Shown piece after piece: positions 15,330-46,013 of a stretch of DNA of 51,203 nucleotides. Position 1 is the first letter of the stretch. The number at the start of each line of letters is the position of its first letter. The stretch is from Clostridia bacterium (GTDB taxonomy: Bacteria > Bacillota > Clostridia > Oscillospirales > CAG-272). A program made the position numbers and the translations under genes. The stretch covers positions 1-51,203 of the forward strand of contig JAFVZV010000084.1 in assembly GCA_017507985.1 (NCBI GenBank). The letters run 5' to 3'. The notes under the pieces are model-generated. The model did not search any database. It had not been told where the DNA came from and was given only the letters and a program-made list of their open reading frames with translations.

Positions 15330-16892
15330 TTACTTCAACGTCAGCTCAACAGCCGTCGTTTTGTTGCTGACGCGCATATACACGTAGATGTGCTTACCGA
15401 TGATCATCCAGCATGGACCGTCGTAACCAAAGCCGGGTTTTGCTGAACCGTCTGCATTGGTCTGAGTCAAGATTGGAGCCTCGATGGTCTCCCAGGTGAT
15501 CAGATCGCGCGAGCGGGCAAACATATGCGTCCAGTATGCCTTGTTATAGCCGCCTTCCTCTGCCTGGTCAGTGCTGACCTCGTATACCATGTAATAGTAA
15601 CCGTCGACGTAAATGACGTCACGGCGTCCCGTCGTACCGCTGTAGAGGGTATTGTCCTCGGTGGGGATGATAGGATCGGGCACCACCGTCAGATTGTGCA
15701 GATCCTTGCCGTAGGCTACGCCGATCTGACAGTCCACAAAATCAAAGCCGTGGAAGAAGAGATACCACGTGTCCCCCTCTTTATACAGATCGGGCGTACC
15801 GACGTTAGCGGTCTGCCACGGAATTTCGGGGTTCTTGTAAAGAATGACACCTTCCTTGGTCCAGTTGATGCCGTCCTCGGAGGTTGCCAGCGCGACGTTC
15901 TCAAGCGTGCCGTATTCGGTCTCCTCGCCGCCCTTGCATTCGTACGTCAAATAAAAGGTACCGTCGTCGTCCAACCAGACACCCGCGAAATATGCGCCGT
16001 TACAGTCGTAGTCCTCGTCGGGCTGCAGCACACATCCTTTGTCCTTCCAGTTGATACCGTCATCCGATACTGCAAGACCGACACCGCCTTTACCCGTTTC
16101 GGTCTTATACGTGATGTAATAGCCCCAGTACTGATCGTTGTAATAGATCATATCGGGAAAATGCATTTTAAAGCTCGCGCCCATGTTTTCGGTGGTGATG
16201 GTCTCTACTGTGTTCCCTGTGAACAGGCCGTTCAGAATATCACCAAAATACTCGTCTGCCTGCTGTTGCGACAGACCAAAGAGAACCTTGGGATTGCCGT
16301 CGTCGGGCACAAATTCCGGATCATTCCAAAGACCCTCGTTGTTCAACGCGGCATCCAGCTTGATCTCCTCACGGCTCTCAAAATCACTCTCGCTTTGGTA
16401 ACCGAGATAATTGGAAAGGAAAAAGGTAACTGCTTCCTCGAGTGCACCGTCTTTTTTGGCAACGATAACGATCTTTTTGCCTATCACGCGAATGAGATAC
16501 GCGTTTTCATGCGACAGCTCCTCCATCGCCGCGATGGACTCGGGACGGTTGGTCTTACCGATCAAAATCTCATAACGATCGGCAAACTCGCCCTCGGTAT
16601 CCTCATAGTCTGTCGTCAAATCGACCTTAACACCGGTGACAGCTTTGATTGCAGCGCCCAATTTGATGCACATTTGGGTTTCCGTATCTGTCGTACTCGC
16701 ACGATCCGAGCGTACGATCATATACGGAGAAGCACCCTCGGAAACAAGAATAATCTGCTCGGGCGGCTTGGCAGGATCATCAGGCGTGTTGGGCTGCCCC
16801 TGCGTAGGATCGGTACAGGCGAGCAACATCATACCGCACATCAAGAGCGCGAGCAAAAAACAAAGAATGTGAGAAATACGATTCAATTTCAT
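15330..16892 (-). CDS. Lipoprotein: N-terminal alpha/beta module plus five-bladed beta-propeller glycoside hydrolase-like domain (GH32/43/130-type fold)
   Basis: Lipobox LLAC; Asp-box-like repeats (AVSDDGINW, ATSEDGINW, ARSRDLITW); five blades with aromatic beta strands. Confidence 0.7.
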   Translation of the reverse strand: MKLNRISHILCFLLALLMCGMMLLACTDPTQGQPNTPDDPAKPPEQIILVSEGASPYMIVRSDRASTTDTETQMCIKLGAAIKAVTGVKVDLTTDYEDTEGEFADRYEILIGKTNRPESIAAMEELSHENAYLIRVIGKKIVIVAKKDGALEEAVTFFLSNYLGYQSESDFESREEIKLDAALNNEGLWNDPEFVPDDGNPKVLFGLSQQQADEYFGDILNGLFTGNTVETITTENMGASFKMHFPDMIYYNDQYWGYYITYKTETGKGGVGLAVSDDGINWKDKGCVLQPDEDYDCNGAYFAGVWLDDDGTFYLTYECKGGEETEYGTLENVALATSEDGINWTKEGVILYKNPEIPWQTANVGTPDLYKEGDTWYLFFHGFDFVDCQIGVAYGKDLHNLTVVPDPIIPTEDNTLYSGTTGRRDVIYVDGYYYMVYEVSTDQAEEGGYNKAYWTHMFARSRDLITWETIEAPILTQTNADGSAKPGFGYDGPCWMIIGKHIYVYMRVSNKTTAVELTLK

Positions 16893-16910
16893 GGAAATCC
16901 TCCAAAACAA

Positions 16911-17606
16911 TTATTGTACTTTGTCACCGACAACCATGGTAATGTTGCTGTGACGGTTGGCAAGATCGGGCTCTTTTTGCCCGTTGATGCGAATATTCAC
17001 ATTGGTGTTATCTCCACGGTAAAAGTCCATTGACAAATCGGAATAGTCATATCCACCCGTATGGATCATACGGATATTGTCAAATTTAATGGTTTCGCCT
17101 TTGATGGCATTGCCCTCAAAGAAACTAAAAATACGGATATAGTTGATCGCCGACAAATCGCACCCGCCGGCAGTAACATAGCTTTCATTCAAATACAGAT
17201 AGATCGTATTCCATCCGGCCTTGATCTTGCCCGACTTCAGTGCATTATGCACAGGCCAAGCATTTTCCAGCTTATCGCACGTGCCGGACGAAGTGATCTC
17301 AATATACAACTCGCTGATATTCGCCATCATTGCCGTATCGGACAGATAAATATCAATGGCAAGTGTATCCGCATCAGAAGCATCAATGGGAGAAAATTGC
17401 GCTTGGTTTGCAAAGGAATTTGTTCCGGAAGAAAAGGTATGCGCAACACAAGCGCCCTTTTCTTGGTCATCGTCTCGTACAAACGAACCAAATGACGTAT
17501 TACAATCATGCAGCAGTGTCACATCCTCTTCCTCCGCAATGACAAAAAATGTAAGGTTACACATCAATATGAGTGAGACAAAAATGCAAATAATTTTCTT
17601 AAGCAT
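16911..17606 (-). CDS. Secreted protein with one CBM-like beta-sandwich domain
   Basis: Signal peptide; TLAIDIYLSD...AGWNTIYLYL...DLSAINYIRIF...IKFDNIR pattern, also seen twice in 36021-37706. Confidence 0.6.
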   Translation of the reverse strand: MLKKIICIFVSLILMCNLTFFVIAEEEDVTLLHDCNTSFGSFVRDDDQEKGACVAHTFSSGTNSFANQAQFSPIDASDADTLAIDIYLSDTAMMANISELYIEITSSGTCDKLENAWPVHNALKSGKIKAGWNTIYLYLNESYVTAGGCDLSAINYIRIFSFFEGNAIKGETIKFDNIRMIHTGGYDYSDLSMDFYRGDNTNVNIRINGQKEPDLANRHSNITMVVGDKVQ

Positions 17607-17665
17607 TGGATCCTCCATCTGCTACAGCCAGGCTGCAGCGCATCTTGGTATTGTGCCGTTAAGAA

Positions 17666-18691
17666 TTAGAGGCGCGAAAAGACCTGCAGACCGTATTCGC
17701 ACAGCGCGTGGTCTTCCTCACCCGTGCCGCCCGAAATACCCAGGCCGCCGACAATGCGATCGCCCACCTTCAAGGGAACGCCGCCGCCGAAGACCAGCAT
17801 TTTATCCACGTTTTGCAGTCCGTAGAAGGTTCCGCCGGGCTGTACCAGTGCCGACAGCTCCATGGTGGACATTTTGACCGAAACCGCCGTATATGCCTTT
17901 TTCAGCGCCACGTCGTAGCTGACCAGGAAGGCATCGTCCATCACGTGTACCGCGATGGGATTGCCCTGCGCATTGCAAACGGCAATGACTGCCTTTTTGC
18001 CGATGGTCGCGGCGTACGCCTCGATCTCACGGATCAACATCTCTGCCTTTTTCAGATCCAGCGTGGCGAGCGCACCCACACGGCGCAGCACCTCATCCAC
18101 AACGGCATCCGCGCTGCCAACCGTCCCACCGCTGGCCGTCTGCGGCACAGCCTTACCCTCACGACGCAGCTTTTCATCATGATCGGCACGGCGGGCCAGC
18201 ATATACAGATAATCGGACAAACGGTTGAGGTAGGCCTTAGCCGATGCATGGGCAGAATATTTACGCTCCATGGTCACCAGCTCGCGCTCAGCGCGACGAG
18301 CGATGGTGCGAGCCACGTCAAGACGTGCCGACAACTCGCAATAGCCGGGCATAATAAACTGACGCTCACGGGGGAAGGAATCCTCCACAAGGTCAATGAT
18401 ATGCTCCAAAAATGCCGTTTCTTCAGCAGATACCTCATACGCCTTATTGCGAGGATCAGCAATCCCCGCCATGATGGTCATCAGCGTTGCCTGCACGCGG
18501 TCGAAATGCTCGACGCAAGTATCGCTGTCTGCCGTTCTCATGGAGGCAATGTGCGCCTTGGCAAGTCCCATCTGCGAGGTCAGCTCGTCAATGGATCCTA
18601 GCGCCGCAATGCGATCATCTGCCTTTGAAATCTGGGTTGCGGATTTGAGCGTGGTCATGCCCGCATCCCCGTGCTTTGTATAAATTTTCAT
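17666..18691 (-). CDS. pduO: Cob(I)alamin adenosyltransferase fused to heme-binding (GlcG/DUF336) domain
   Basis: IYTKHGDAGMT, GSIDELTS, ARRAER, YLNRLSDYLY; C-domain VALKKAYTA, FGGGVPL, GISGGTGEEDH. Confidence 0.93.
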   Translation of the reverse strand: MKIYTKHGDAGMTTLKSATQISKADDRIAALGSIDELTSQMGLAKAHIASMRTADSDTCVEHFDRVQATLMTIMAGIADPRNKAYEVSAEETAFLEHIIDLVEDSFPRERQFIMPGYCELSARLDVARTIARRAERELVTMERKYSAHASAKAYLNRLSDYLYMLARRADHDEKLRREGKAVPQTASGGTVGSADAVVDEVLRRVGALATLDLKKAEMLIREIEAYAATIGKKAVIAVCNAQGNPIAVHVMDDAFLVSYDVALKKAYTAVSVKMSTMELSALVQPGGTFYGLQNVDKMLVFGGGVPLKVGDRIVGGLGISGGTGEEDHALCEYGLQVFSRL

Positions 18692-18745: not shown

Positions 18746-19087
18746 TCAGTGCTCTCCCAACTTAAACGGGAGCTTTTTGATAACTCTGGCACTGTTGGCT
18801 CCAACGTCCCGCGCCTGCCCCGGCGTTGCGCGCTCGAAGCCAAGCAGCGGAGATCGATCCGTCATACCCTTGATATGCAGGGCAATCGAGCAACCAACAA
18901 GGGCCACCCCCGAGCCGAGCACCGACACGCCCGAAGCAGCCGCAGCCAGTGTTGCCGCATCGCCCGAGGGCTGTGCGATCACCTCATACAACACGCCCTC
19001 CTCCTCGATGCCGGCGCATATTTCGCGCAACAACATCTCATCGGGACGAACAGTAAAAATCAAAATGGTTGGTTTTCTTGCGATCAT
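18746..19087 (-). CDS. pduH: Diol/glycerol dehydratase reactivase small subunit
   Basis: ICAGIEEEGV, SVLGSGV, ARDVGANSARVIKKLPFK; directly after pduG. Confidence 0.88.
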   Translation of the reverse strand: MIARKPTILIFTVRPDEMLLREICAGIEEEGVLYEVIAQPSGDAATLAAAASGVSVLGSGVALVGCSIALHIKGMTDRSPLLGFERATPGQARDVGANSARVIKKLPFKLGEH

Positions 19088-19090
19088 GGC

Positions 19091-20905
19091 TTATACATCC
19101 CCCAGATACGAAAGTACAAGTCCCGTCGCGACGGCGTTTCTCGGTCCCTCGGTGGCACGGATATTTCCTCGGCCGCATACGATACGGTAAGCGGCAAACT
19201 CCTCCATAAGCATCTCGGGAATTTCAAAATCCTCAGCCGAGCCGCCGACAAGCACCACGTTGGGAATACGACGCATCTCATGCGTAGGTGCAACCTCGCG
19301 CAACGCGCGCAACGCATTGGTAACAAACACCTTACGCTTGGCCTCGCGGCGCACCTGGACGATCTTTTCCATGGGGATATCCTCGTCAATACGCACCATG
19401 CCCTCAGGTGTCATGAGCACAACGTGACCGAACAGTCGCGGATCGATCGATCCGTCAAAGAACTGCATTGCGCCATTTTCCAGACGCAAATGGAACAAGC
19501 TCTCCACCTTGCCAAGCGGATATTTTTTGATCTGCTCGGCCGTGTGACGGCTCGCAAGCCCCAGCTCGGTCTGAATGAGCATAGACACCAGCTCTCCTGC
19601 GCCTGCGCAATGGGTCATACGGACAGCACCATCCTCATCGATGACAGCTGCATCGGTCGAGCCTCCGCCCATATCAAGAATCGCCAACGGCACGCGGGTA
19701 CCCGGCGTGGTCATTGCGCCAAGCGCGGCCATGACGGCCTCCACACCTGCCACGATCACACGAACGCCGAGATCTCTCATCAGCGCATCGGCAATCTGCT
19801 GCATCGGCAGCTGACGGGTACGCACCATTGCAGCAATACCCACTGCCTTTTCCATGCAGGTCTCGCCTGCCAACGCACCTGCAATGGCCACGGGCGCCAA
19901 CGTATCGACAGCCAGCAGATCGGTGATACGAATATCCTCCGCCCGCTCGCCGCTCACCCCCGACATGCCGTTTCGAATGCGTTGCAGCATTTGACCGACG
20001 TTGGTATTGGGCTCACCCAAAATATTGCGAATCTCGCCCGCATTTTGCAACGTTTGCATGATGCGTTCGGCGCCCTCGTCAATATTAACGGTCGCAGACG
20101 AATGCGCATCAAACGTGATCGAGCCGGCCTTCAGCACGTTCTCACGGATATTACCGTGAGGCGTCTTTATCACAACCGCGCTTCGCTTGCCAATCAAGCT
20201 TTTGGCGATCGGCGTAATGCTGCGCGTCTGTGCGGCATCCAACCCAAGCAACGTAGCAATGCCATATGGGTTGCTCAGCATACGCACCGACTGCCCCGGC
20301 AGCGCCACCTCAATGGCAGCCAGCTTACCCTCGGGCAACCGTTCAATGTAGCGAACCTCGTCGATGATCGGTATTTTTTTGTTTAGACGGTTTTCGACCA
20401 GCACCGCCTCGTCCGCCTGCATAATAACACCCTTGATTTCATAGCGCTCGGCGGCGCGGTTAATGCGCTGGGAAACCGTTTCATATGTATACGACCTGGG
20501 CACCGTGACGATATACGCCACGCCCTCGCGCGCCATATCCAGTCGCGCAAGAGGGATGAGCTCACCCACCGCCTGACCCGCGCCTGCGGGCGTGGCCGGA
20601 TTGTGCCCAATCATAGAAGATTCGGTAATGATGGTCTCGGTAATGGTTTCCATCGCTGTGTCACCGATGACAGGTGCGGCCTCGTTGATGCGGACAAGCG
20701 ACAAGTCGGAGATCTGATATCCCGCCTCGCTCACCGCCGCCAATAGTGCCGCTTTGACGCCGTGCACGTTGGCAAGAGTGCCTTTGGTTCCCGTCGTCGG
20801 CCGCATGGCACCGCCAAGAAAACGAGTGAAGCCACTCGCATCCCGCGTACCGATGCACACCTCGGTGGTGGAGTTACCGATATCCACCCCTGCGATCAGT
20901 TTCAA
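19091..20905 (-). CDS. pduG: Diol/glycerol dehydratase reactivase large subunit
   Basis: AGVDIGNSTTE, RINEAAPVIGD, ITESSMIGHNP, LDMGGGSTDAA, EGPRNAVATGL; probable TTG start overlapping the pduE stop. Confidence 0.95.
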   Translation of the reverse strand: MKLIAGVDIGNSTTEVCIGTRDASGFTRFLGGAMRPTTGTKGTLANVHGVKAALLAAVSEAGYQISDLSLVRINEAAPVIGDTAMETITETIITESSMIGHNPATPAGAGQAVGELIPLARLDMAREGVAYIVTVPRSYTYETVSQRINRAAERYEIKGVIMQADEAVLVENRLNKKIPIIDEVRYIERLPEGKLAAIEVALPGQSVRMLSNPYGIATLLGLDAAQTRSITPIAKSLIGKRSAVVIKTPHGNIRENVLKAGSITFDAHSSATVNIDEGAERIMQTLQNAGEIRNILGEPNTNVGQMLQRIRNGMSGVSGERAEDIRITDLLAVDTLAPVAIAGALAGETCMEKAVGIAAMVRTRQLPMQQIADALMRDLGVRVIVAGVEAVMAALGAMTTPGTRVPLAILDMGGGSTDAAVIDEDGAVRMTHCAGAGELVSMLIQTELGLASRHTAEQIKKYPLGKVESLFHLRLENGAMQFFDGSIDPRLFGHVVLMTPEGMVRIDEDIPMEKIVQVRREAKRKVFVTNALRALREVAPTHEMRRIPNVVLVGGSAEDFEIPEMLMEEFAAYRIVCGRGNIRATEGPRNAVATGLVLSYLGDV

Positions 20906-21294
20906 AGCAATATTCCTCTCTTTTCGTAAACCTCGGCTGCTTCCAGCACCAGTTTTGCGCAAGTTTTTGCATTGTATTTTTTATTCAGCTCATCAGCCAT
21001 AGCCAACAGCTCGGCCTTGGTCGAGCGATTGGGGCGGAGCATATTGTACATTTTCAAAATGACCTCGTCGGGAACGTCGACAAGCTCGGCCGCGCGCTCG
21101 AAATTGCGTGCCATAGGCGGATTGTCCGCCTCCATTGCCACCTGTCCTTGCTTGCGCAGCATTTCTTTGGAGATCTTGATGTCCTCTCCCGTGATATTTC
21201 CCTTTTTGATCTCTTCCAGGTTAATATCATCCAGCTTTTTGCCGGTCTTAGAGGTGATTTTTTCGCGTTCGTATTCACCAAGCGGATATTTCAT
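20902..21294 (-). CDS. pduE: B12-dependent diol/glycerol dehydratase small (gamma) subunit, no N-terminal extension
   Basis: YPL, TGKKLDDINLE, NFERAAEL, YNMLRPNRSTKAEL. Confidence 0.93.
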   Translation of the reverse strand: MKYPLGEYEREKITSKTGKKLDDINLEEIKKGNITGEDIKISKEMLRKQGQVAMEADNPPMARNFERAAELVDVPDEVILKMYNMLRPNRSTKAELLAMADELNKKYNAKTCAKLVLEAAEVYEKRGILL

Positions 21295-21324: not shown

Positions 21325-22461
21325 TCAGCGATCGCTCCATGCGATGATGGGGTAGTTGGGATCAACCTGCTCGGTCTCGGCAATATGCATGATAGCCGCT
21401 TTGACCTGATACTTGGCTCGGCACATGGGATCGTTGACCGAGGAAATGGGCGTGACCTGCTCACCCTTAGCATACTTGGCAGCATTCTGACCGATCTTGC
21501 GATAGGTTTCCAGATTCATCAGCGGTGCCTGAGGGAACAGCTCCAGATTGGACAGCGGATACAGGTCCTTCTGGTGAATAACGGCCGTACCCTTGGACTG
21601 CAATCCGATACCGATGCCCGAGCCCGAGATCTTGGCCGCCTCAAGGCCCATGAAGCAGACGTCGCTGGTCTTGAGAACCTTGACGACGCGGGGCACCATG
21701 CCCTCTTCCTCAATACCGGCCTTGACCTCGCGGATGACCTCAGAGAGAGGAATACCGCAAATGGTCGCCTGAATTTCCTTCTGGAAGCCGGGGCCTACGC
21801 CAATGACGACCTCCTTAGGGTCCGTTCCCTTTTCGGCAATGGGGTAGCCGTGGTAAGATGTCTTGGTAGGATTGATGCGTTCGGTGCCTGCCATAGATGC
21901 AGGACGGGCAGCGGACTTTTTCGCCGACGCGGGGCAAGCGGTGGCCATTTCGCGAATGGCAGCAGACGACGCGACCTCACGAGTCGGCTGTGCGCGCAGA
22001 GCAGTCAGCACCTTTTCAATGGCCTCTCCGGGAACAACTCCCTCGAGCTGTGCGGCCTCCTTGATGACGGCCTCGGAAATTTTCTTGCAAATTTCATCCT
22101 CCAGTACAACACCGCGACCGGTGAACAACAGGCTCTCGTTGGACACGGGAGCGACCTCGGTAATGGACTCGCCCTGCAGCGATCCTACAACCTTTTGCAG
22201 CATTTCCTCGGGATCAACGCCCTCAAGCTGCTCTGCCTCCTTAACGACGGCGATAGCAATGCGGCGAACGATCTCCTCGTCCACGCGAACACCACGGTGG
22301 CCCATCATTTTGGCAGTAGTGCAGTCCTTGCGAGGCTCAGCGCCTTCCAGATAGTCCACGACCGAGTGAAGCATCTCCTCGGGACGAATACCGTCCAGCT
22401 GAGCCGATTCACGAATGACGGCCTCGGTTATTTTCTTACGAATATCTTCGGTGAGTTGCAT
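21325..22461 (-). CDS. pduD: B12-dependent diol/glycerol dehydratase medium (beta) subunit with ~200-aa repeat-containing N-terminal extension
   Basis: C-terminal ~175 aa: EVVIGVGPGF, AGIEEEG, SGSGIGIGLQSKGT, LSNLELFPQAP; three tandem repeats at the N-terminus. Confidence 0.93.
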   Translation of the reverse strand: MQLTEDIRKKITEAVIRESAQLDGIRPEEMLHSVVDYLEGAEPRKDCTTAKMMGHRGVRVDEEIVRRIAIAVVKEAEQLEGVDPEEMLQKVVGSLQGESITEVAPVSNESLLFTGRGVVLEDEICKKISEAVIKEAAQLEGVVPGEAIEKVLTALRAQPTREVASSAAIREMATACPASAKKSAARPASMAGTERINPTKTSYHGYPIAEKGTDPKEVVIGVGPGFQKEIQATICGIPLSEVIREVKAGIEEEGMVPRVVKVLKTSDVCFMGLEAAKISGSGIGIGLQSKGTAVIHQKDLYPLSNLELFPQAPLMNLETYRKIGQNAAKYAKGEQVTPISSVNDPMCRAKYQVKAAIMHIAETEQVDPNYPIIAWSDR

Positions 22462-22502
22462 ATGTATAATCCTCCGTTTTCGTTTTGGTGGTATAATTCA
22501 AA

Positions 22503-24167
22503 TCAAAGGTTGTGCGGGTCGATCTGGTGAGGAATATCCTTGATTTCCTCCCAACGCTCGCCATCGAGACGATAGCCCGTGCCGGGGCCCATATAGGTGT
22601 TGGGCGTGTTGATGGCGCTGAGCACGCGGTAGTTCTCATCCAGCACCGCCGAGGTCTGCATATAGTCGCCGACAACGCGTTGCTTGAGCATATTGAGCAC
22701 GCGCTGAGCGATGTCCTCATGTCCCGTCTCGGCTAACGCACGGCAGACGTCAATGCCCGTGATGCCACGCTTGAGCATATCCTCGCAAGCGATCAGATCG
22801 GCAGGCACGTCGCGGTTCAAGGTGTCCTTGGAGCCGTGCGCATATACGACAGCCTCCACCTGCTCGTCCGTGATTTCGGTCAAGCCCAGATAGCGGAAAA
22901 CCGACTGAACCGCCTTAGCCGCCTTGCGGCGCACCGCGATGACATCCTCCTCCAGCACGGGGCGAAGACCGCCGTCCACCTGAAGGTCACGCTGCAGTAC
23001 GTTGTAATCGTCAAAGTCCTCGGCATCAAAGTTGGAGCCGGCGAACATATTATCGTAGTTGGGCTCGGCTGCATAGCCCGAGAAAATGAAGTCGGTACCC
23101 GGCATCAGCTCAAGCAACGTACGCGTGGTACGGCGAGCAGGAGAATTGGAGAAGCTCTGGTCGTTACCCGAAGCACACTCAAGGCCCAGAAGGGTTGCCA
23201 CCAGGTTCTCACCCAGCACCTCCCGAATACCCGAGGGAACCGACGCAGGAACGGCGATACAACTGATCGCACCGTTCTGCGTTCCCTGCGAGCCTGCGCC
23301 TTTGGTCACGTACAAGCAACGGCACTCGAGATACAGCATGGACTTCTTTTCGCTATATCCCATGAGGACCTCCGAGCCTGCGCCCGAGGTGAAGCGAACC
23401 TTAAGGCCGCGCGAAGCGTAAGCAGAATTGAGGAATGCCTTGGAATAGGGCGTATCGTCACCGTCTACAAATACTTTTTCGGTACCGTAAACGGAAACGG
23501 TTTCCGCATACGTCGTTAGACCACGAATGCCCAGATCCAACTCGGTTGCCTCCTCAGAGGAGCACTGCGTCAGCACGCCGGGGCGTCCTGCCTGTGAGCC
23601 GATCAAAATGGCCATCGCAGAAAAAGGAGCGTAGCGGGCAATGCCCATGGTCGTCTCCTCCTCGGCAAAGCCGCGAAGTGCGCCCTCAGCCGCGTCGGCC
23701 GCGAGCTGTACGGGATCGTCCTTGAGGTTGGTGATGTGCGCTTGATTAAAGGGACGCAGACGAGCGCGCATCTTTTGCATACCCATCATCAGCTCAACGA
23801 CGTTGAGGTGCCCGATAACCTCGGCCATTTTTGCAGGCGAGATACCCGAGCAGATCTTCAGAATTTCTTTTCTCGGCACGTGGATATCGACGATCTTTCT
23901 CGCAATCTCCAACGACGGAATAGACATGGAAACGGGGGCGCGTTGAATATTGATCGCATGATCGGCGATAAAAGTATCGATAAAGTCGAAGTCCTTTCTT
24001 GCCTTGCCGTCAAGCTCTATGATCTTGCCGCCGCTGATTTTGATGGAAGGCTTGGGATCATAGGGGCTGTGCATGGCAACAAAGCCCATCTCGGGCCATT
24101 CGCTGATATAGCCGTCCAGGTTGACGGGACGGGCATCCAGTGCCTCAAATCTCTTGGATCTTTTCAT
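22503..24167 (-). CDS. pduC: B12-dependent diol/glycerol dehydratase large (alpha) subunit, 554 aa
   Basis: MKRSKRFE start, NQAHITN, EEETT, YAETVSVYGTE, QNGAISC, GNDQ, NMFAGSNFDAEDFDDY. Confidence 0.97.
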   Translation of the reverse strand: MKRSKRFEALDARPVNLDGYISEWPEMGFVAMHSPYDPKPSIKISGGKIIELDGKARKDFDFIDTFIADHAINIQRAPVSMSIPSLEIARKIVDIHVPRKEILKICSGISPAKMAEVIGHLNVVELMMGMQKMRARLRPFNQAHITNLKDDPVQLAADAAEGALRGFAEEETTMGIARYAPFSAMAILIGSQAGRPGVLTQCSSEEATELDLGIRGLTTYAETVSVYGTEKVFVDGDDTPYSKAFLNSAYASRGLKVRFTSGAGSEVLMGYSEKKSMLYLECRCLYVTKGAGSQGTQNGAISCIAVPASVPSGIREVLGENLVATLLGLECASGNDQSFSNSPARRTTRTLLELMPGTDFIFSGYAAEPNYDNMFAGSNFDAEDFDDYNVLQRDLQVDGGLRPVLEEDVIAVRRKAAKAVQSVFRYLGLTEITDEQVEAVVYAHGSKDTLNRDVPADLIACEDMLKRGITGIDVCRALAETGHEDIAQRVLNMLKQRVVGDYMQTSAVLDENYRVLSAINTPNTYMGPGTGYRLDGERWEEIKDIPHQIDPHNL

Positions 24168-24287
24168 GGTGAACGGTTCCTTTCTCTTATGGTCCTCGCA
24201 CGCGTGCTCACGCGTACGCGCGCGTATTGGCAAAGGAAATCGCGCCGGGCAGGCACAATTTCCGATCATATAATTCTAGTCTTCTAT

Positions 24288-36020: not shown

Positions 36021-37706
36021 TCAGCGCGCATCCGTCAGATAGACGCGGTCCAAGTGTACGACGTACGTCTTGTTTCCGTGTGCACCGACAACAAAGCGGA
36101 ACGCATACAACGTAATATCTTCGCCTTCCCCATATTTTTCAGCATCCAGATTCTTTTCAAATGCCGAGAGCGGGATGGCAATCTCGCACCATTCACCGTT
36201 TTTCGTTGACAGACCGTATTCTTGCAGCTCGGCCTTGGTAAAGGTCTTTTCGTATTCGTGAGAGTCTTGAATCTGATTCAGCTCAACAAAGATATACTCC
36301 ATGTTTGCCAGATTCTCCACGTTCACCCAAAAGACCAGCGTATCATTTTGATAACTCAGCGGCATATTCAAATCGCTGACGATGATACGGAAGTCGGTAA
36401 CCGACGAGTCACCCTCGACACGCAACGAAGAATTGCCGAATTTCTTGTTTTCCAGGTCGTAAGAAGCGCCGTACCATTCCTGAATCATCGCGCCGTCAAA
36501 GGCATCGTACTCGGCATCCGTGATAAGTCTGCCGCCCTCAGGAGCAGCCTCGGGTACGTGGTCACTTTCGTAATGCACCACACGCAGATCATCGAACTCG
36601 ATCATAGTACCCTGCTCTGCCGCTACAAGCACGCCAAAGCTGGTAATATTACTATAATCAAAGTCTGTGTCCATGCCGTTATGGATGTTGAAAGACAGCT
36701 CAACCTCGTGCCAACCGTCTCCCGTCAGTGTGTGGTTCCATGCGTGGATGCGGCCCTTAGAGTCAAAGACGCGGAAGAAGAAGGTTGCTTGTCCCTCCTG
36801 ACGCTTACCGTACACGTCATCGTGATCACAGGTCACCTTGTCTACGTCGTCGACAAACAGCCAGAACTTCAAGGTCGTTTTCTGCTTGTCAACTGCCGAG
36901 AAGGAGAAGGCATCGCCGCTTCTCCACATCAATCGAGTCAGCTCTTTGTCATCGCGGCTGATGGTAAAGCGCCACGCAGCGTCGCCTTCCATCTGATAAT
37001 CTTCGTCCAAGCCAACCGCCTCATACGTCGTAATACCCTCGGTACCAAGCTCGTCAAAGCTGAACAGCGGGGTTTCCGTATAAGTATCAACGTAATCACT
37101 ATACTGCTTTTTCAAGGGAGAGCCAACAACCTCCTTAAGCAAAAGCAGCTCGCGAACGGAAATAACGAATTCCAACGAGTCGGAGACGCCCCACTTGCCT
37201 TGACTTTCGCTCAAGTAATATTTGATCAGGTATTCGACGCCATGCACCGTTGCTTCATCATTCGTACCGATAACGATCAGCTTTTTGCCTTTAACGCGGA
37301 TCATAAATCCGTCGCCCACCAGCTCGCCGAGAATTTGCATATCCTTCAGATCCTGCAAAGCCTTGCTTGATTCCTCGCGGTTGGTATTGCCGATCAGAAT
37401 CTCTTTTTCGCCTTTTTCAGCCCAGTCGGTATCCATCTTGAGCTTTACGCCCGTCTTGGTGTGAATCGCCTCATACAGGGTTGAAAATGCAGTTCTTACG
37501 TCAGGCTTGGCCGTATCGCCGCGAATCAGCATATACTCCGATACGCCATCTTTAATAATGGAGAGGCTATCCTTGTCCTGCTCGTCGGGTGTTGTTCCCG
37601 GGCCGTCCGTGGGACCTTCTCCGGCCGGCGGTTGATTGTTGCAGGAAACAGAGGCCAACAGCATTAGCAGTGCCAACAGCATACACAAAATTTTTGTCAG
37701 TTTCAC
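36021..37706 (-). CDS. Lipoprotein: N-terminal alpha/beta module plus two CBM-like beta-sandwich domains
   Basis: GTG start after AAGGAG; SVSC lipobox; EILIGNTNREES module; duplicated TL.FW..V...GW.E.....F...D..R pattern. Confidence 0.65.
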   Translation of the reverse strand: MKLTKILCMLLALLMLLASVSCNNQPPAGEGPTDGPGTTPDEQDKDSLSIIKDGVSEYMLIRGDTAKPDVRTAFSTLYEAIHTKTGVKLKMDTDWAEKGEKEILIGNTNREESSKALQDLKDMQILGELVGDGFMIRVKGKKLIVIGTNDEATVHGVEYLIKYYLSESQGKWGVSDSLEFVISVRELLLLKEVVGSPLKKQYSDYVDTYTETPLFSFDELGTEGITTYEAVGLDEDYQMEGDAAWRFTISRDDKELTRLMWRSGDAFSFSAVDKQKTTLKFWLFVDDVDKVTCDHDDVYGKRQEGQATFFFRVFDSKGRIHAWNHTLTGDGWHEVELSFNIHNGMDTDFDYSNITSFGVLVAAEQGTMIEFDDLRVVHYESDHVPEAAPEGGRLITDAEYDAFDGAMIQEWYGASYDLENKKFGNSSLRVEGDSSVTDFRIIVSDLNMPLSYQNDTLVFWVNVENLANMEYIFVELNQIQDSHEYEKTFTKAELQEYGLSTKNGEWCEIAIPLSAFEKNLDAEKYGEGEDITLYAFRFVVGAHGNKTYVVHLDRVYLTDAR

Positions 37707-37766
37707 GGGTATTCTCCTTTCGACCTTCCCCAAGGGTAAGGCTTTTGCAGACTCATCAATATATTT

Positions 37767-40208: not shown

Positions 40209-40762
40209 GCCTTATCACCATCGCTCTCGGACAGAGAATTTTCGTCTGCCTTATTGCTTCCCTGCTTGTACTCACGATACAATTCCAAACCGCAATACAG
40301 TACCATGATACCCGCGCCGACACACACACAGCTATCGGCAACGTTGAATATATATGGCCAAATACCGTAAAAGTCGATCATATCAATGACGTAGCCGAGT
40401 GAGATGCGGTCGATCATGTTGCCGATACCACCGCCGACGATCAGCGCCAGCGAAGCGCGCAGCCAGCGATTCTGTTCGGAAAGAAACAGCAGATAGAACG
40501 TGACACCAATGATCGCGACCGTTGAAAAGATCATAAAGATCCAGCGATGATCGGACAGACTGCCAAACGCCGCCCCCTCGTTTTGCAGATAGGTCAGCTT
40601 GAGCAGCCCCGGAATGAGGGTTACGCTGCTGACAGGCTTGAGATAGGTCACACACAGCCATTTGGAAATCTGATCAATCGTCACACTCGCAAGCGAGAGA
40701 ATCAGCCACAGCCAAGGACGTCCGCGCATACAAAGGCGCTTGTTACCGTTCGTCCCCGTCAT
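40205..40762 (-). CDS. lspA: Lipoprotein signal peptidase II
   Basis: DQISK, NEGAAFG, GGGIGNMIDR, FNVAD; ileS-lspA-rluD order. Confidence 0.95.
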   Translation of the reverse strand: MTGTNGNKRLCMRGRPWLWLILSLASVTIDQISKWLCVTYLKPVSSVTLIPGLLKLTYLQNEGAAFGSLSDHRWIFMIFSTVAIIGVTFYLLFLSEQNRWLRASLALIVGGGIGNMIDRISLGYVIDMIDFYGIWPYIFNVADSCVCVGAGIMVLYCGLELYREYKQGSNKADENSLSESDGDKA

Positions 40763-40765
40763 GCA

Positions 40766-43576
40766 TCAGCCCTCCAGAATGTTCAAGCAGCGAGCGCACA
40801 AAAATCCTTCGTCGTCCTGCTTGCCCTCGGTAGAGTAGGCCCAGCAACGGTCGCACTTGCAACCATCCGCGCCCTCAACCAGTACGGCAATGCCCGAGGC
40901 AGTTTCAGTCAGGGCGCCCTCGGGAGCTTGACCCTGCTCCAGCTTGACGCCGGATACGATAAACACAGTTTTAAGGTTGTCACCGAACGAAGACAGCAGC
41001 GCCATCTGCTCGTCGTTTTGCGTATAGATGGTCAGCTTGGCATCCAGCGATTTACCGATCTTTTTATCGGCACGCGCCAGCTCCAACGCTTTCATCACGT
41101 CGTCGCGCAGATCGAACAACGCGTTCCAATGCTCTGCCAGTGCAGGCATGGACAGCGCTTCGTCGTACGTGGGCAGATCGTTAAAGAATACGCTTTCACG
41201 CTTGTCAGCCGCCGTATGAGGCATTGCCTGCCAAATCTCCTCGGATGTGAACGCCAACAGCGGAGCCATCAGACGAGTCATAGCAGACAGCACCAGATAC
41301 ATCGCGCTCTGGGCACTGCGGCGCGCGAGCGAATCGGGGCGCTCGGTATACACACGATCCTTGGTAATATCCACGTACAGCTTGGACAAATCGGTTGTAC
41401 AGAAGTTGGTCAGATCGTGATAAATGCTGTGGAAGCAATAATTCTCATAGTTCTCTCTTGCACGGCGAACCAGCTCGTTGGCGCGGGAGAGCAGCCAGCG
41501 GTCGATCTCATACATATCGTCAACAGCCACCATATCCGTCTCGGGATCAAAGCCGTTAAGGTTGGCCAGAATGATACGCGAGGTGTTACGGATCTTACGG
41601 TAAGCCTCGGAAAGCTGCTTGAAGATGTTATCCGAGCAACGGACGTCCACTTGATAGTCGGCAGAAGCAACCCACAAACGAACAAGGTCTGCACCGTATT
41701 TAGCCACCATGTCCTGAGGATCTACACCGTTACCCAGCGACTTATGCATGGCTCTGCCCTCGCCGTCAACGACCCAACCGTGAGTCAAAACGGCCTTGAA
41801 GGGAGCCGTTGTGCCGCCCTTGGCACCGATAGCCGTCAGCAACGATGCCTGGAACCAACCGCGATACTGGTCAGCGCCCTCCAAGTAGAGGTCGGCCGGC
41901 CAGGTGTGCTCGGGCCAAGCAGGGTTGGCCTTGTCGTCCAAAACGGCAACGTGGGTCGAACCCGAGTCAAACCAACCGTCCAGCGTGTTCTGCTCCTTGA
42001 TAAAGTGCGTCTTGCCGCACTTGGGGCAGACGTAGCCCTCGGGGAGCAGATCCTTTGCGTCCATCGAGAACCAGCAGTTCGATCCGTGCTCAGCAAACAT
42101 AGCAGACACCTTCTCGATGGTTTCAGGGGTGCAGATGGTTTCCTTACAATCCTCGCAGTAGAAGACGGGAATGGGCAGGCCCCAATGACGCTGACGCGAA
42201 ATGCACCAGTCAGCACGCTCACCCAGCATCTGCTTCATGCGGTCGCCGCCCCACGCAGGCATCCAAGTCACGTCGTCGCAAGCCTTAACCGCATCGGCGC
42301 GGAAGGCATCGACCGAGCAGAACCACTGAGGAGTAGCACGGAAGATGATGGGAGACTTACATCTCCAGCAGTGAGGATATTCGTGCTCAAATTCCTTGGA
42401 AGCAAACAGCGCACCCGTTTCCTTCAAATCGGCAAGAATTGCCTCGTTGGATTTTTCATAGTAAAGGCCGGCAAACTTACCTGCATCCTCGGTCTGATAG
42501 CCGCGGTCGTCAACGGGCACGATGATGTCGATGCCGTAACGCTTGCAGGTCTGGTAGTCGTCCGCACCAAAGCCGGGCGCGGTATGAACGCAACCCGTAC
42601 CGCTGTCCATGGTAACGTAGTCAGCCATGAGGACAACGCTCTCGCGGTCAAGGAAAGGATGCTGGGTCTTGATGAATTCCAGCTTCTTACCCGGCATGGT
42701 CGCCACAATCTCATAGCCCTCGACGCCGCCCTCAGCCATGGTCTTCTCGACCAGTGCCTCGGCAATTACGTAATATTCATCGTTTGCCTTAACGACAGCA
42801 TAACTTTCCACGGGGTTCAGCGCGATAGCCAAGTTACCGGGCAACGTCCAAGTAGTCGTCGTCCAGATGATAAAGTATGTCTTGGAAAGGTCGCAAACGT
42901 CGGCCAGTACGCCGTTATCGTTGTTGACGCGGAACTTGACATAGATAGAGGTACACTTGTCCGTCTTATACTCGATCTCGGCCTCGGCCAGCGCCGTTTC
43001 GTCCTTAGGGCACCAGTAAACGGGCTTCAGGCCCTTGTAGATATAGCCCTTGCGGAACATCTCACCGAACACCTTGACCTCGCGCGCCTCAAAGGCGGGT
43101 GCCATGGTGGTATAGGGATGCTCCCAGTCAGCCGTCAGACCCAGACGCTTCATCTGCTCTCTTTGGATGTTGATGAAATCCTGAGCAAACGCCTCGCAGG
43201 CGCTACGGAATTCGGGAATGCTCATGGCCTTGCGGTTGAGCTTGTTCTTTTTGATAATAGCAGACTCAATGGGCATGCCGTGGTTATCCCAGCCGGGGAT
43301 ATAGGGCACGCGATAGCCCATCATGCTGCGGGATTTGTTGATGAAATCCTTGAGAATCTTATTCAGAGCATGACCCATGTGGATATTACCGTTGGAGAAG
43401 GGAGGGCCGTCGTGCAACACGAACAGCGGCTTGTCCTTGTTGTTCTCCAGCATTTGATTGTACAGATCGATGGAGTTCCAGTACTCCAGCATTTTGGGCT
43501 CGCGCATGGGAAGATTTGCCTTCATGTCAAACGACGTTGTCGGCATATTCAGTGTGCTCTTGTAATCTTTTGCCAT
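40766..43576 (-). CDS. ileS: Isoleucyl-tRNA synthetase (type 1)
   Basis: HDGPPFSNGNIHMGH (HIGH), WTTTTWT, WCISRQR, AMHKS (KMSKS), C-terminal CDRC...CARC zinc finger; AGGAG RBS before ATG 43576. Confidence 0.97.
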   Translation of the reverse strand: MAKDYKSTLNMPTTSFDMKANLPMREPKMLEYWNSIDLYNQMLENNKDKPLFVLHDGPPFSNGNIHMGHALNKILKDFINKSRSMMGYRVPYIPGWDNHGMPIESAIIKKNKLNRKAMSIPEFRSACEAFAQDFINIQREQMKRLGLTADWEHPYTTMAPAFEAREVKVFGEMFRKGYIYKGLKPVYWCPKDETALAEAEIEYKTDKCTSIYVKFRVNNDNGVLADVCDLSKTYFIIWTTTTWTLPGNLAIALNPVESYAVVKANDEYYVIAEALVEKTMAEGGVEGYEIVATMPGKKLEFIKTQHPFLDRESVVLMADYVTMDSGTGCVHTAPGFGADDYQTCKRYGIDIIVPVDDRGYQTEDAGKFAGLYYEKSNEAILADLKETGALFASKEFEHEYPHCWRCKSPIIFRATPQWFCSVDAFRADAVKACDDVTWMPAWGGDRMKQMLGERADWCISRQRHWGLPIPVFYCEDCKETICTPETIEKVSAMFAEHGSNCWFSMDAKDLLPEGYVCPKCGKTHFIKEQNTLDGWFDSGSTHVAVLDDKANPAWPEHTWPADLYLEGADQYRGWFQASLLTAIGAKGGTTAPFKAVLTHGWVVDGEGRAMHKSLGNGVDPQDMVAKYGADLVRLWVASADYQVDVRCSDNIFKQLSEAYRKIRNTSRIILANLNGFDPETDMVAVDDMYEIDRWLLSRANELVRRARENYENYCFHSIYHDLTNFCTTDLSKLYVDITKDRVYTERPDSLARRSAQSAMYLVLSAMTRLMAPLLAFTSEEIWQAMPHTAADKRESVFFNDLPTYDEALSMPALAEHWNALFDLRDDVMKALELARADKKIGKSLDAKLTIYTQNDEQMALLSSFGDNLKTVFIVSGVKLEQGQAPEGALTETASGIAVLVEGADGCKCDRCWAYSTEGKQDDEGFLCARCLNILEG

Positions 43577-43627
43577 TGCTTGTTTTCTCCTTTTTGTTTT
43601 AATTTTCAACGAATACATTTTCGCGGC

Positions 43628-43915
43628 GGGAAACAAAAAAACGCCCCACAGCCGCACGCGACCATGAGACGGAAGAACCTTCCGCGGTACCACTCATTTT
43701 GTGTCAATGACACCACTCAAGCGTCAACACATTCGTATTGCGCCGTACGCCTTAACGCGGCAACACGGGGCGGATTACACTCGTAGCGAGAGATTGCCGT
43801 CTCGCGCGATTTCACCGTTCCTGCTCCGAAGGGATACGCCATGCCGTCCGCTGCGCAGTTCCACCAAACCTGCGCTCTCTGTGAGTTTTCGACACTTTGC
43901 TTCTTCATCATAGCA
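43628..43915 (-). ncRNA. T-box riboswitch (Ile)
   Basis: GAGTGGTACCGCG T-box near 43683-43695, then hairpin and T run; AGAGAG and GGTGGAA distal stem-I motifs; candidate ATC specifier at 43833-43835. Confidence 0.88.
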
Positions 43916-44474: not shown

Positions 44475-44948
44475 CTACTCCCCCGAGAGCACCACGCTCA
44501 CCACAACACCGTCCCGAAGACCAAAGGTCAAAACACTTCCCTCGCCGCGATAGATCAAACGGGTATCACTCTCCTCATCCGCCTGCCCCATCGCCGCAAT
44601 GACATCCTGTACAGAGCATCCAATGCGTACCCCCTGCGCGCTCTGCACACCGTCATCGATATACGACACCGATGAGACGACCGCCGCGCCGCTCATAGGT
44701 GCAAACACGTACAGCCGCAATGACGGATAGGTATACATCCGATCCATCCCCTGCCCCGCACAGCTTTCCGCTTCAGTCACGGTATAGTCATCGCCCAGTT
44801 GTGCGATTGCGTCATCTGCCGCCATGCCGACCGTCAACTCCAAACCGCGGTAAGATAGTGAAAGCGGGGCAGGCTCATTCGGCAACGGAGGAGCACAAGC
44901 ACAAAGCAAGACGAGGGAAAGCATCAACACGACGATTATTCGTTTCAT
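44475..44948 (-). CDS. Small lipoprotein with internal two-fold repeat
   Basis: LCAC lipobox; LTVGMAADDAIAQLG / VRIGCSVQDVIAAMG repeats; start overlaps the upstream stop. Confidence 0.75.
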   Translation of the reverse strand: MKRIIVVLMLSLVLLCACAPPLPNEPAPLSLSYRGLELTVGMAADDAIAQLGDDYTVTEAESCAGQGMDRMYTYPSLRLYVFAPMSGAAVVSSVSYIDDGVQSAQGVRIGCSVQDVIAAMGQADEESDTRLIYRGEGSVLTFGLRDGVVVSVVLSGE

Positions 44949-45988
44949 TTTGCCCCCTCCTTCTTTTGCGCCTCATAGCGGGCGATATCCTCCGTCCAAA
45001 CGACGCAATCATGATCGCGCAGACGTGTATCCGTCAGCTGATAATTTTCCACCAAAATTTTGCCGAAATAAGCCGTCAACTTTTCAGCACCGTACACATT
45101 CAGATGGAGCCCGGCATCGTAGGTATCGGTCGTATAATTCAGACCGATGGTCTCGATCTCATTCAAAAAATTGTAATATGGCAATCCGTACTGCTCCGCA
45201 AGAGCGACGACCTGTGCCTCATATTCTTCATGCCATGGATAGCGCCACGAGTCGGTCGGTGCTTTGATCAGCACCAACTCAGCATTGTTGTCACGGCACA
45301 GCGTGACAATGCGATCAAAATAATCCAACGCCATCTCACCAAAGGCGGTCGCGCGCGGCGGTAATGCCCCCTCGTGACTCGGAGCGTTTCCTGCGACCAC
45401 GCCATTCTGCACGAGATATCCTCGTACCGAGACGGGCTCCTGATGCGAAAACAGCGTCGTGACATCCTGCCATGACAGCTGAGACCAACGATCATGATAC
45501 CGCAACAGTGGAAAGGCATAAGACAGCTTGCTCTCGCCTTCAACGATAGCATCACTCAGCACTTGCCATTTGGTTGACGATGCAGGCAGATGATCCAGCA
45601 CCATACGGTTATACGCCTCACTCTGCGGCTCACTGTAGATCAAACCATACACACCCAGCACGATCACCTTGGGATCAGAACGCTCAAAAACCTCCTCCAG
45701 CACGGCATAGCTGTGCCACACAAGCTGTTGGGGCGTGCCGCATACGCGGGAAGAAATGCCATATTTCTGCCAAAGCACAACAGGTGAAAAGGCCTCGTAC
45801 ACCTCGCAATCGCCAACAAAGACGACCTCATCCTGTGCTGTGTCGGCCTCAAAATAGTCTTGCAGTAAAAACGCTTCCGGGTTGGCCGCACGATCATGAG
45901 GAACAAGCAACGCCTGCGCCGCGCCAAACAAGAGCGCAGTGAGTATGACAAACGTCAAGACGGCCCATATCCATTTCGTTTTTTTCAT
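44945..45988 (-). CDS. Membrane-anchored SGNH/DltD-like acyltransferase (block I GDC)
   Basis: N-terminal hydrophobic helix; VVFVGDCE; YDAGLHLNVYGA; directly downstream of the MBOAT. Confidence 0.75.
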   Translation of the reverse strand: MKKTKWIWAVLTFVILTALLFGAAQALLVPHDRAANPEAFLLQDYFEADTAQDEVVFVGDCEVYEAFSPVVLWQKYGISSRVCGTPQQLVWHSYAVLEEVFERSDPKVIVLGVYGLIYSEPQSEAYNRMVLDHLPASSTKWQVLSDAIVEGESKLSYAFPLLRYHDRWSQLSWQDVTTLFSHQEPVSVRGYLVQNGVVAGNAPSHEGALPPRATAFGEMALDYFDRIVTLCRDNNAELVLIKAPTDSWRYPWHEEYEAQVVALAEQYGLPYYNFLNEIETIGLNYTTDTYDAGLHLNVYGAEKLTAYFGKILVENYQLTDTRLRDHDCVVWTEDIARYEAQKKEGAK

Positions 45989-46013
45989 TGCCTGTCCTCC
46001 TTTCATTCAAATA

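Follow-up and report, generated by a model that had tools for sequence, protein, structure and literature searches.

Encapsulation peptides (EPs) are the handle by which enzymes are loaded into bacterial microcompartments (BMCs), in nature as well as in engineering. PduD of Salmonella and Citrobacter carries a single N-terminal EP, which is sufficient to package PduCDE, and 84 PduDs are described with one EP of 14–16 aa and a linker of 22–58 aa (PMC4594438). EPs also drive the condensation of cargo, and the effect of their copy number on loading and core condensation has so far been probed with synthetic EP1–EP3 fusions only (PMC12339742). On the genomic side, the 2021 BMC catalog is limited to a neighbourhood of 12 open reading frames (ORFs) around a shell gene, and the presence of shell genes is also what defines its satellite loci (PMC8217296), and the PVM-like type was suspected to be a fragment of GRM5 (Axen 2014, PMC4207490). 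We describe here a pduD gene, for the medium subunit of diol/glycerol dehydratase, whose product carries three EP-like units in tandem. It lies in a window of 51,203 nucleotides (positions 1–51203 of contig JAFVZV010000084.1, assembly GCA_017507985.1, Clostridia bacterium), and all coordinates are given on this scale.

A comparison with the PduD of Salmonella and Citrobacter, made by description, shows the same protein and terminus, and in both cases a variable linker comes after a short helix. The EP is single there, whereas three copies are found here, each enlarged by a turn and a second helix, and the extension reaches about 188 aa. PduE of the present operon has no extension, which is a further difference. 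The synthetic EP1, EP2 and EP3 share with the array the tandem EP-plus-linker arrangement at the N-terminus of a cargo protein, and the number three matches the proposed trimeric EP bundles; they are identical laboratory-built copies of the PduP EP, while the copies described here are natural, diverged, conserved and placed on a signature enzyme (PMC12339742). A natural tandem EP is not mentioned in the excerpts of that paper. It was also not found by a phrase search of the literature, with subscription journals and supplements outside its scope, in which the hits came only from docking and titration contexts.

The N-terminal array of PduD

Three units of about 39 aa, each with two predicted helices, follow one another with a spacing of 57–60 aa. 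Of the units with their predicted helices, unit 1 alone is terminal, and units 2 and 3 are internal. The original prediction covered positions 21849–22461, which correspond to residues 1–204 of PduD. It had described a PduD of 378 aa with three N-terminal repeats, a period of 57–60 aa and an Ala/Ser/Pro-rich linker, and its repeat strings agree with the translation letter for letter. The start of the catalytic-family domain, placed by it near aa 205, needs correction, as the conservation with ordinary PduDs begins at about aa 190 ("MAGTERIN...") and PF02288 spans aa 229–336 (E 7.6e-35, 119.6 bits against a curated cut-off of 27).

The repetition is far above the level of chance. Local alignments among the three 58–60-aa repeat segments score 93, 92 and 103, against means of 23–27 (standard deviation 4.4–4.8) for 300 shuffles each, which gives z = 15.0–15.9. 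A hidden Markov model (HMM) of the unit with 39 positions was built from 48 units of 17 family members; 18 rows had been aligned and one yielded no unit. This model finds three domains in the PduD ORF, with 76, 72 and 67 bits. Outside pduD, no match in the 2.07-Mb genome that holds the window, scanned in all six frames, is better than E 0.23.

Seven pairwise comparisons with the pduD genes of related loci were used to estimate the ratio of non-synonymous to synonymous substitution rates (dN/dS). The units give values of 0.015–0.24, with 38.5–58.5 synonymous and 3–63 non-synonymous differences. In the two closest comparisons the units (0.015 and 0.024) are kept about as tightly as the catalytic core (0.016). 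The two inter-unit linkers, pooled, give 0.23–0.98 in the five more distant comparisons, and the Ala/Ser/Pro-rich region (aa 159–204) gives 0.06–0.63 where dS can be estimated, more than the units or the core. A low ratio in the units and a higher one in the linkers is the pattern expected for functional helices joined by flexible linkers. Judged from these codon changes, the units are translated and under purifying selection. The same pattern speaks against a translation start downstream near aa 190, by which the repeats would be absent from the mature protein. Two NCBI-named PduDs of the family (P0040 and P0043, 223 and 219 aa) do start inside or just after unit 3, probably because their start codons were chosen to suit the usual family length, which would hide the repeats. 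With a strong Shine-Dalgarno sequence (GGAGG) at the upstream ATG and an N-terminal frame that is open and conserved in 10/10 related loci scanned, a downstream start is hardly conceivable.

Cys47, His55 and Gly57 are invariant in 9/9 sequences, and so is Arg116-Gly117-Val118 before unit 3. An R-G-V motif precedes unit 2 and also unit 3. Because of these invariant residues, the inter-unit linkers are not wholly free to vary. To be noted, in the comparison with one genus member (L016, genome G187) dN of the core (0.46) is higher than that of the units (0.19), the reverse of the six others. Similarly divergent cores are found in P0022 and P0025.

The relation of the units to the PduD EP was addressed with a search using the catalytic part (aa 205–378), which returned 3206 proteins. 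Among the best 120 of these 3206, the matches with at least 91% identity are triple-repeat forms of 365–379 aa together with a few short records, and the next tier, at 78–84% identity, consists of ordinary PduDs of 212–258 aa. At the N-terminus, the latter have a single EP of the classical type and then a short linker that varies, the status of these N-termini as EPs being taken from the literature on enteric PduD (PMC4594438). Searched against a database of 132 sequences, the unit profile places its first positions on the N-terminus in 80 of the 85 ordinary PduDs, 46 of them with a domain E below 0.01. Typically, profile positions 1–15/20 fall on residues 2–16/21. The helix-2 half of the unit has no match in the 85 ordinary PduDs. 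This comparison supports the derivation of the repeats from the PduD encapsulation peptide. The original prediction had called the repeats encapsulation-peptide-like, in agreement with these alignments of helix 1 and with linkers that evolve faster, as in EPs. Its count of up to six EP-like helices looks too high, as the first helix of each unit aligns to known EPs and the second one does not.

Single-copy forms of the two-helix module exist in other Clostridia. P0048, P0081 and P0107 are PduDs with an EP, a Gly-containing turn and a second helix, as in the array, but in one copy only. The same holds for PduD of the sister genus G006 (L030, G006:C1 1857–2585), whose single N-terminal module aligns with unit 3 over 37 aa without gaps (BLASTP E 1e-4) and with unit 1 with one gap (E 0.007). 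The single-copy modules in relatives indicate that the two-helix unit existed singly and was then triplicated. Such a single two-helix PduD module was not found described as a class in the literature searched. The pduC gene of G006 starts 187 nt from a contig end.

In a tree of the 48 units, the first, second and third units each form one side of a branch, with support of 99/98, 83/79 and 95/85, respectively. This grouping by position indicates that the triplication predates the divergence of the family and that the copies do not homogenise. Exactly three units are present in 37 of the 47 family records. The other 10, with 68–308 aa, are fragments, alternative starts or chimeras, and none has four units. 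Two short metagenomic records are likely chimeric assemblies, in which unrelated N-terminal sequence runs into part of the triple-repeat PduD, in P0037 at unit 2 and in P0047 at the core.

The array is rare. It occurs in 31 clusters among 5.8 billion proteins. The unit profile retrieved 7 proteins from 1.84 billion representatives, all of them members of the triple-repeat PduD family or its fragments, which rules out the unit as a wider module; at this scale the 39-position profile cannot detect ordinary EPs of 18 aa. Among 401 genomes of the bacterial family the array is present in eight, all of one genus (7/7 sampled members and the genome of the window), and it is absent from the 96 other genera of this set. 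A sample of the order was likewise negative (0/400 other genomes, 30 families). Eight array loci in the species collection all belong to uncultured metagenome-assembled genomes labelled Eubacteriales, Oscillospiraceae or Clostridia. As far as the sequences searched can tell, the array is confined to a single genus, uncultured and Oscillospiraceae-like, and to a few relatives.

Shell genes and the unlinked microcompartment locus

No shell genes were found in the 51-kb window. In the genome of the window, PF00936 matches eight times and PF03319 once, all on contigs C110 and C193. PF00936 (BMC-H) is present in 11/11 genomes that carry the array, compared with 91/401 genomes of the bacterial family; the vertex gene (PF03319) was searched in the genome of the window alone. 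The original prediction had proposed searching genomes with an HMM of the repeat and recording the co-occurrence of shell genes, and this search finds PF00936 in every carrier and never near pduD. Shell genes are on contigs other than that of pduD in the genome of the window and in 7/7 sampled members of the genus, and none of eight related loci has a shell match within 10 kb of pduD. The strongest case is the 102-kb contig of a relative, with pduD at 77.7 kb and the shell genes on other contigs. The canonical PDU layout, with pduCDE in one locus with the shell genes, is not found here.

The shell locus contains, in order, genes for acetate kinase, class II aldolase, aldehyde dehydrogenase, Zn-type alcohol dehydrogenase, four BMC-H, PduL, BMC-P, a PduS-like flavoprotein, BMC-T, a further BMC-H, PduV and a ParA-like ATPase. 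Its Pfam content comprises PF00596, PF00171, PF06130, PF00936 six times (one of them a tandem-domain BMC-T) and PF03319. EP-like termini are present on four of its enzymes, at the C-terminus of the aldolase and at the N-termini of aldehyde dehydrogenase, alcohol dehydrogenase and PduL. Class II aldolase, aldehyde dehydrogenase, a PTAC-family protein and shell genes together make the locus PVM-like/GRM5-like. By gene content, the PTAC-family PduL, the Zn-type alcohol dehydrogenase and acetate kinase are also shared with PVM-like/GRM5 loci. In GRM5, a glycyl-radical propanediol dehydratase is encoded inside the locus, whereas the B12 dehydratase described here is encoded elsewhere, without an adjoining shell gene. 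In a relative whose shell locus lies on a 99-kb contig, the flanks are housekeeping genes.

No dehydratase is encoded in the shell locus, which otherwise covers every step around propionaldehyde. The pduC gene of the window is the sole gene for a dehydratase large subunit in its genome, and EutB was not found there. Because the cargo consists of aldolase, aldehyde dehydrogenase, Zn-type alcohol dehydrogenase, PduL and a PduS-like protein, and because the only dehydratase is that of the window, the shell locus appears to be in need of this enzyme. L-rhamnose isomerase (RhaA) is present in the genome; fucose isomerase was not found in its 86%-complete assembly. PduV, a ParA/MinD-like ATPase and a 79-aa Lys/Ala/Pro-rich ORF stand at the end of the shell locus (G000:C193 5113–6603, L027) and could form a positioning module for the organelle.

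Proposed role of the array and alternative explanations

We consider it probable that the array is a targeting tag, which recruits the separately encoded dehydratase with high avidity into the microcompartment of the unlinked locus. Within residues 1–158, an enlarged PduD encapsulation module is repeated three times in tandem, and the copies have diverged. A copy comprises a predicted EP-homologous helix, a Q-L-(D/E)-G-x-x-P turn and a predicted second amphipathic helix, with variable linkers between the copies and to the core. From these repeats, their homology to the EP, the selection on them, the gene arrangement and the co-occurrence with shell genes, we infer binding, encapsulation, a gain from multivalency and a pathway, as follows. 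The array would bring the dehydratase into the shell made by the unlinked locus. The holoenzyme of diol dehydratase is composed of two alpha-beta-gamma trimers. With two PduD chains, each holoenzyme would display six units for EP–EP and EP–shell contacts and might thereby bind both the shell and the EP-mediated cargo network with high avidity. Through such avidity, a dehydratase encoded, and probably also regulated, apart from the shell could enter the cargo core or act as its seed. One organelle might then lead from rhamnulose-1-phosphate via lactaldehyde, 1,2-propanediol and propionaldehyde to propionyl-CoA or propanol.

Structure prediction and searches for known domains give the following picture. 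AlphaFold2 predicts two helices per unit, both for the full length (18 aligned sequences; predicted local distance difference test score, pLDDT, below 50 over aa 1–202) and for the array alone (aa 1–165, 9 aligned sequences; pLDDT 46, predicted template modelling score, pTM, 0.31). No tertiary packing of the array is predicted in either case. The catalytic core of PduD is predicted confidently. A complex prediction with the three units as separate chains gave a score of 0.03 and a mark of 0.32, which weighs neither for nor against binding. With an E threshold of up to 10, seven Pfam families match the array, all of them below their cut-offs. The best of them, DUF6846 (17.5 bits, with the cut-off at 27), was rejected as a chance match, as it gives 12.8 bits in the genome scan and also stays below the cut-off in three control genomes. 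A sequence search of the PDB returned only 3 matches (E 0.46–0.78), and a search of the ESM Atlas gave no usable match.

Several observations weigh against a targeting tag of high avidity. The conserved Q-L-(D/E)-G-x-x-P turn and the second helix are foreign to described EPs. The array has a pLDDT below 50 throughout, so that even its helices are of low confidence. The Eisenberg hydrophobic moments of helix 1 (0.36–0.50) are reached by 8–36% of its own shuffles and those of helix 2 (0.45–0.54) by 0.3–4%, so that helix 2 clearly exceeds its shuffles in amphipathic character and helix 1 does not. The co-occurrence with shell genes is drawn from close kin, which are not independent. The genome is 86% complete and in 194 contigs, and the term "unlinked" rests on contigs. 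Three PFL-like matches lie on other contigs of the genome, two of them at contig ends. Moreover, synthetic EP3 serial fusions showed no gain in condensation over EP2, a result ascribed by the authors to self-quenching (PMC12339742). More copies therefore need not mean more valency.

This last result leads to an alternative, in which the three EP-derived helices of one chain pack as a closed bundle and the array is one stabilised or regulated targeting element. EPs are reported to prefer trimers, and a covalent EP3 can close all binding sites according to simulations and serial-fusion assays (PMC12339742). The presence of exactly three copies in every full-length member and the distinctness of each copy across the whole family are in line with such a bundle. 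Confident packing, however, is missing from both AlphaFold2 models, and we regard the closed bundle as unlikely. The inter-unit linkers, about 20 aa long and partly conserved, neither favour nor exclude it. We give about the same small chance to an EP-descended helical repeat that was co-opted for another job, such as docking of the reactivase, positioning by the ParA-like or PduV protein of the shell locus or oligomerisation of the enzyme, and that no longer serves encapsulation. Units as tightly kept as the core in close comparisons would suit it, and so would the one lineage in which the core has diverged more than the units. Residues foreign to described EPs point in the same direction, namely Cys47, His55, R-G-V and the invariant turn Q-L-x-G-x-x-P-E. 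Against it, no Pfam family above cut-off, no PDB sequence and no Atlas cluster was matched and no confident fold was obtained, and a targeting role accords with the position of the array, the arrangement of its linkers and its sequence similarity to EPs.

The original prediction had also offered a shell-free condensate, in which the array would cluster the dehydratase in the cytoplasm. The lack of shell genes in the window and near pduD in the related loci agrees with it, and EPs alone condense cargo in vitro (PMC12339742). The genomes, however, argue strongly for a shell, with BMC-H in 11/11 carriers and with a shell locus that lacks a dehydratase yet has aldehyde-consuming enzymes, propionaldehyde being the expected substrate, and a PduS-like protein. 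In addition, the toxicity of propionaldehyde is the accepted reason for encapsulation. We hold a shell-free condensate to be very improbable.

The targeting reading can be extended, more tentatively, in two directions. The natural three-unit array, fixed long ago, possibly makes the dehydratase itself the nucleating scaffold of the metabolosome core, and it possibly lets a shell-less enzyme operon take over an aldolase-type (PVM-like/GRM5-like) shell and so change the function of the organelle; we consider this less likely than not. The dehydratase would then be a catabolic counterpart of CsoS2 and CcmM, in which repeated short modules and linkers nucleate cargo by multivalent weak binding. 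The likeness would be only functional, as there is no sequence relation and as CsoS2 and CcmM are dedicated scaffolds, while the repeats here are on an enzyme subunit.

The array offers a natural test case under long selection, in which the signature enzyme bears three copies that have diverged and that each have an additional helix. The gene arrangement also shows that shell genes need not lie anywhere near the gene for a signature enzyme. Under the 12-ORF rule of the catalog, an enzyme-only pduCDE operon would not be linked to its shell locus. Surveys limited to the neighbourhood of shell genes would classify the shell locus from its aldolase and overlook the dehydratase, along with other enzyme-only partner loci of this kind. 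PVM-like loci that seem "fragment-like" may in some cases encode complete organelles whose partners lie elsewhere in the genome. Under the rules of the catalog (PMC8217296), the present shell locus would look PVM-like.

The pdu operon and its neighbourhood

The pduCDE-GH-O genes are adjacent and on the same strand (Table 1), and their order is syntenic in 8/8 related loci as far as the contigs reach. PduD alone bears the tag. The pduC stop codon TGA (22503–22505) is 41 nt upstream of the pduD ATG. The start of pduC at M34 is indicated by the N-terminus of the family and by 93–100% tblastn identity over 554–555 aa in seven loci; an eighth related contig holds just the last 43 aa of pduC. The ORF stretch upstream of M34 is not conserved coding sequence. 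An Rfam search of the whole window found no family at gathering score, including a cobalamin riboswitch ahead of the operon.

Table 1. Positions of the pduD gene, its parts and the other pdu genes in the window
Feature	Position	Strand	Description and basis
pduD, diol/glycerol dehydratase medium subunit	21325..22461	-	ATG start, 378 aa including N-terminal array; ORF list and PF02288
Shine-Dalgarno GGAGG	22471..22475	-	9 nt 5' of pduD ATG; read from sequence
Unit 1, aa 2-40	22342..22458	-	HMM domain 76.2 bits; helix 1 aa 5-19, QLDG-x-x-P turn, helix 2 aa 27-38 (AlphaFold2)
Inter-unit linker 1, aa 41-59	22285..22341	-	conserved Cys47, His55-x-Gly57; alignments
Unit 2, aa 60-98	22168..22284	-	HMM domain 72.2 bits; helices 62-77, 84-95 (AlphaFold2)
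Inter-unit linker 2, aa 99-119	22105..22167	-	ends in conserved R-G-V; alignments
Unit 3, aa 120-158	21988..22104	-	HMM domain 66.9 bits; helices 122-138, 144-156 (AlphaFold2)
Ala/Ser/Pro-rich variable linker, aa 159-189	21895..21987	-	length varies, weak conservation in family alignment
Conserved PduD core, aa 190-378	21328..21894	-	78-84% identity to ordinary 212-258-aa PduDs; confident in AlphaFold2
pduC, large subunit	22503..24170	-	555 aa from M34 of 588-aa ORF; PF02286, E 2.8e-296; no N-terminal extension
pduE, small subunit	20902..21294	-	130 aa; PF02287 over aa 2-129; no N-terminal extension
pduG-like reactivase large subunit	19091..20962	-	PF08841 and PF18427; true start probably a few codons downstream
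pduH-like reactivase small subunit	18746..19087	-	113 aa; PF02288
PduO-type cobalamin adenosyltransferase fused to HbpS-like domain	17666..18691	-	PF01923 and PF03928

Elsewhere in the window, long ORFs without a Pfam match at E 1e-5 are found at 40547–43786 (plus strand, 1079 aa), 36021–37733 (minus strand, 570 aa) and 44945–46006 (minus strand, 353 aa). Since a 975-aa ORF on the opposite strand overlaps that of 1079 aa, the coding strand is ambiguous there. Downstream of the PduO-type gene, positions 15330–17618 encode a 235-aa protein with a signal-like N-terminus and without a Pfam match, and a 526-aa GH32/GH43-like protein. The former is 32–75% identical in 6/8 related loci and the latter 71–84% in 5/8; the remaining loci are short contigs or give no match. 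The pdu genes are mostly far better conserved than these two downstream genes in the closest loci.

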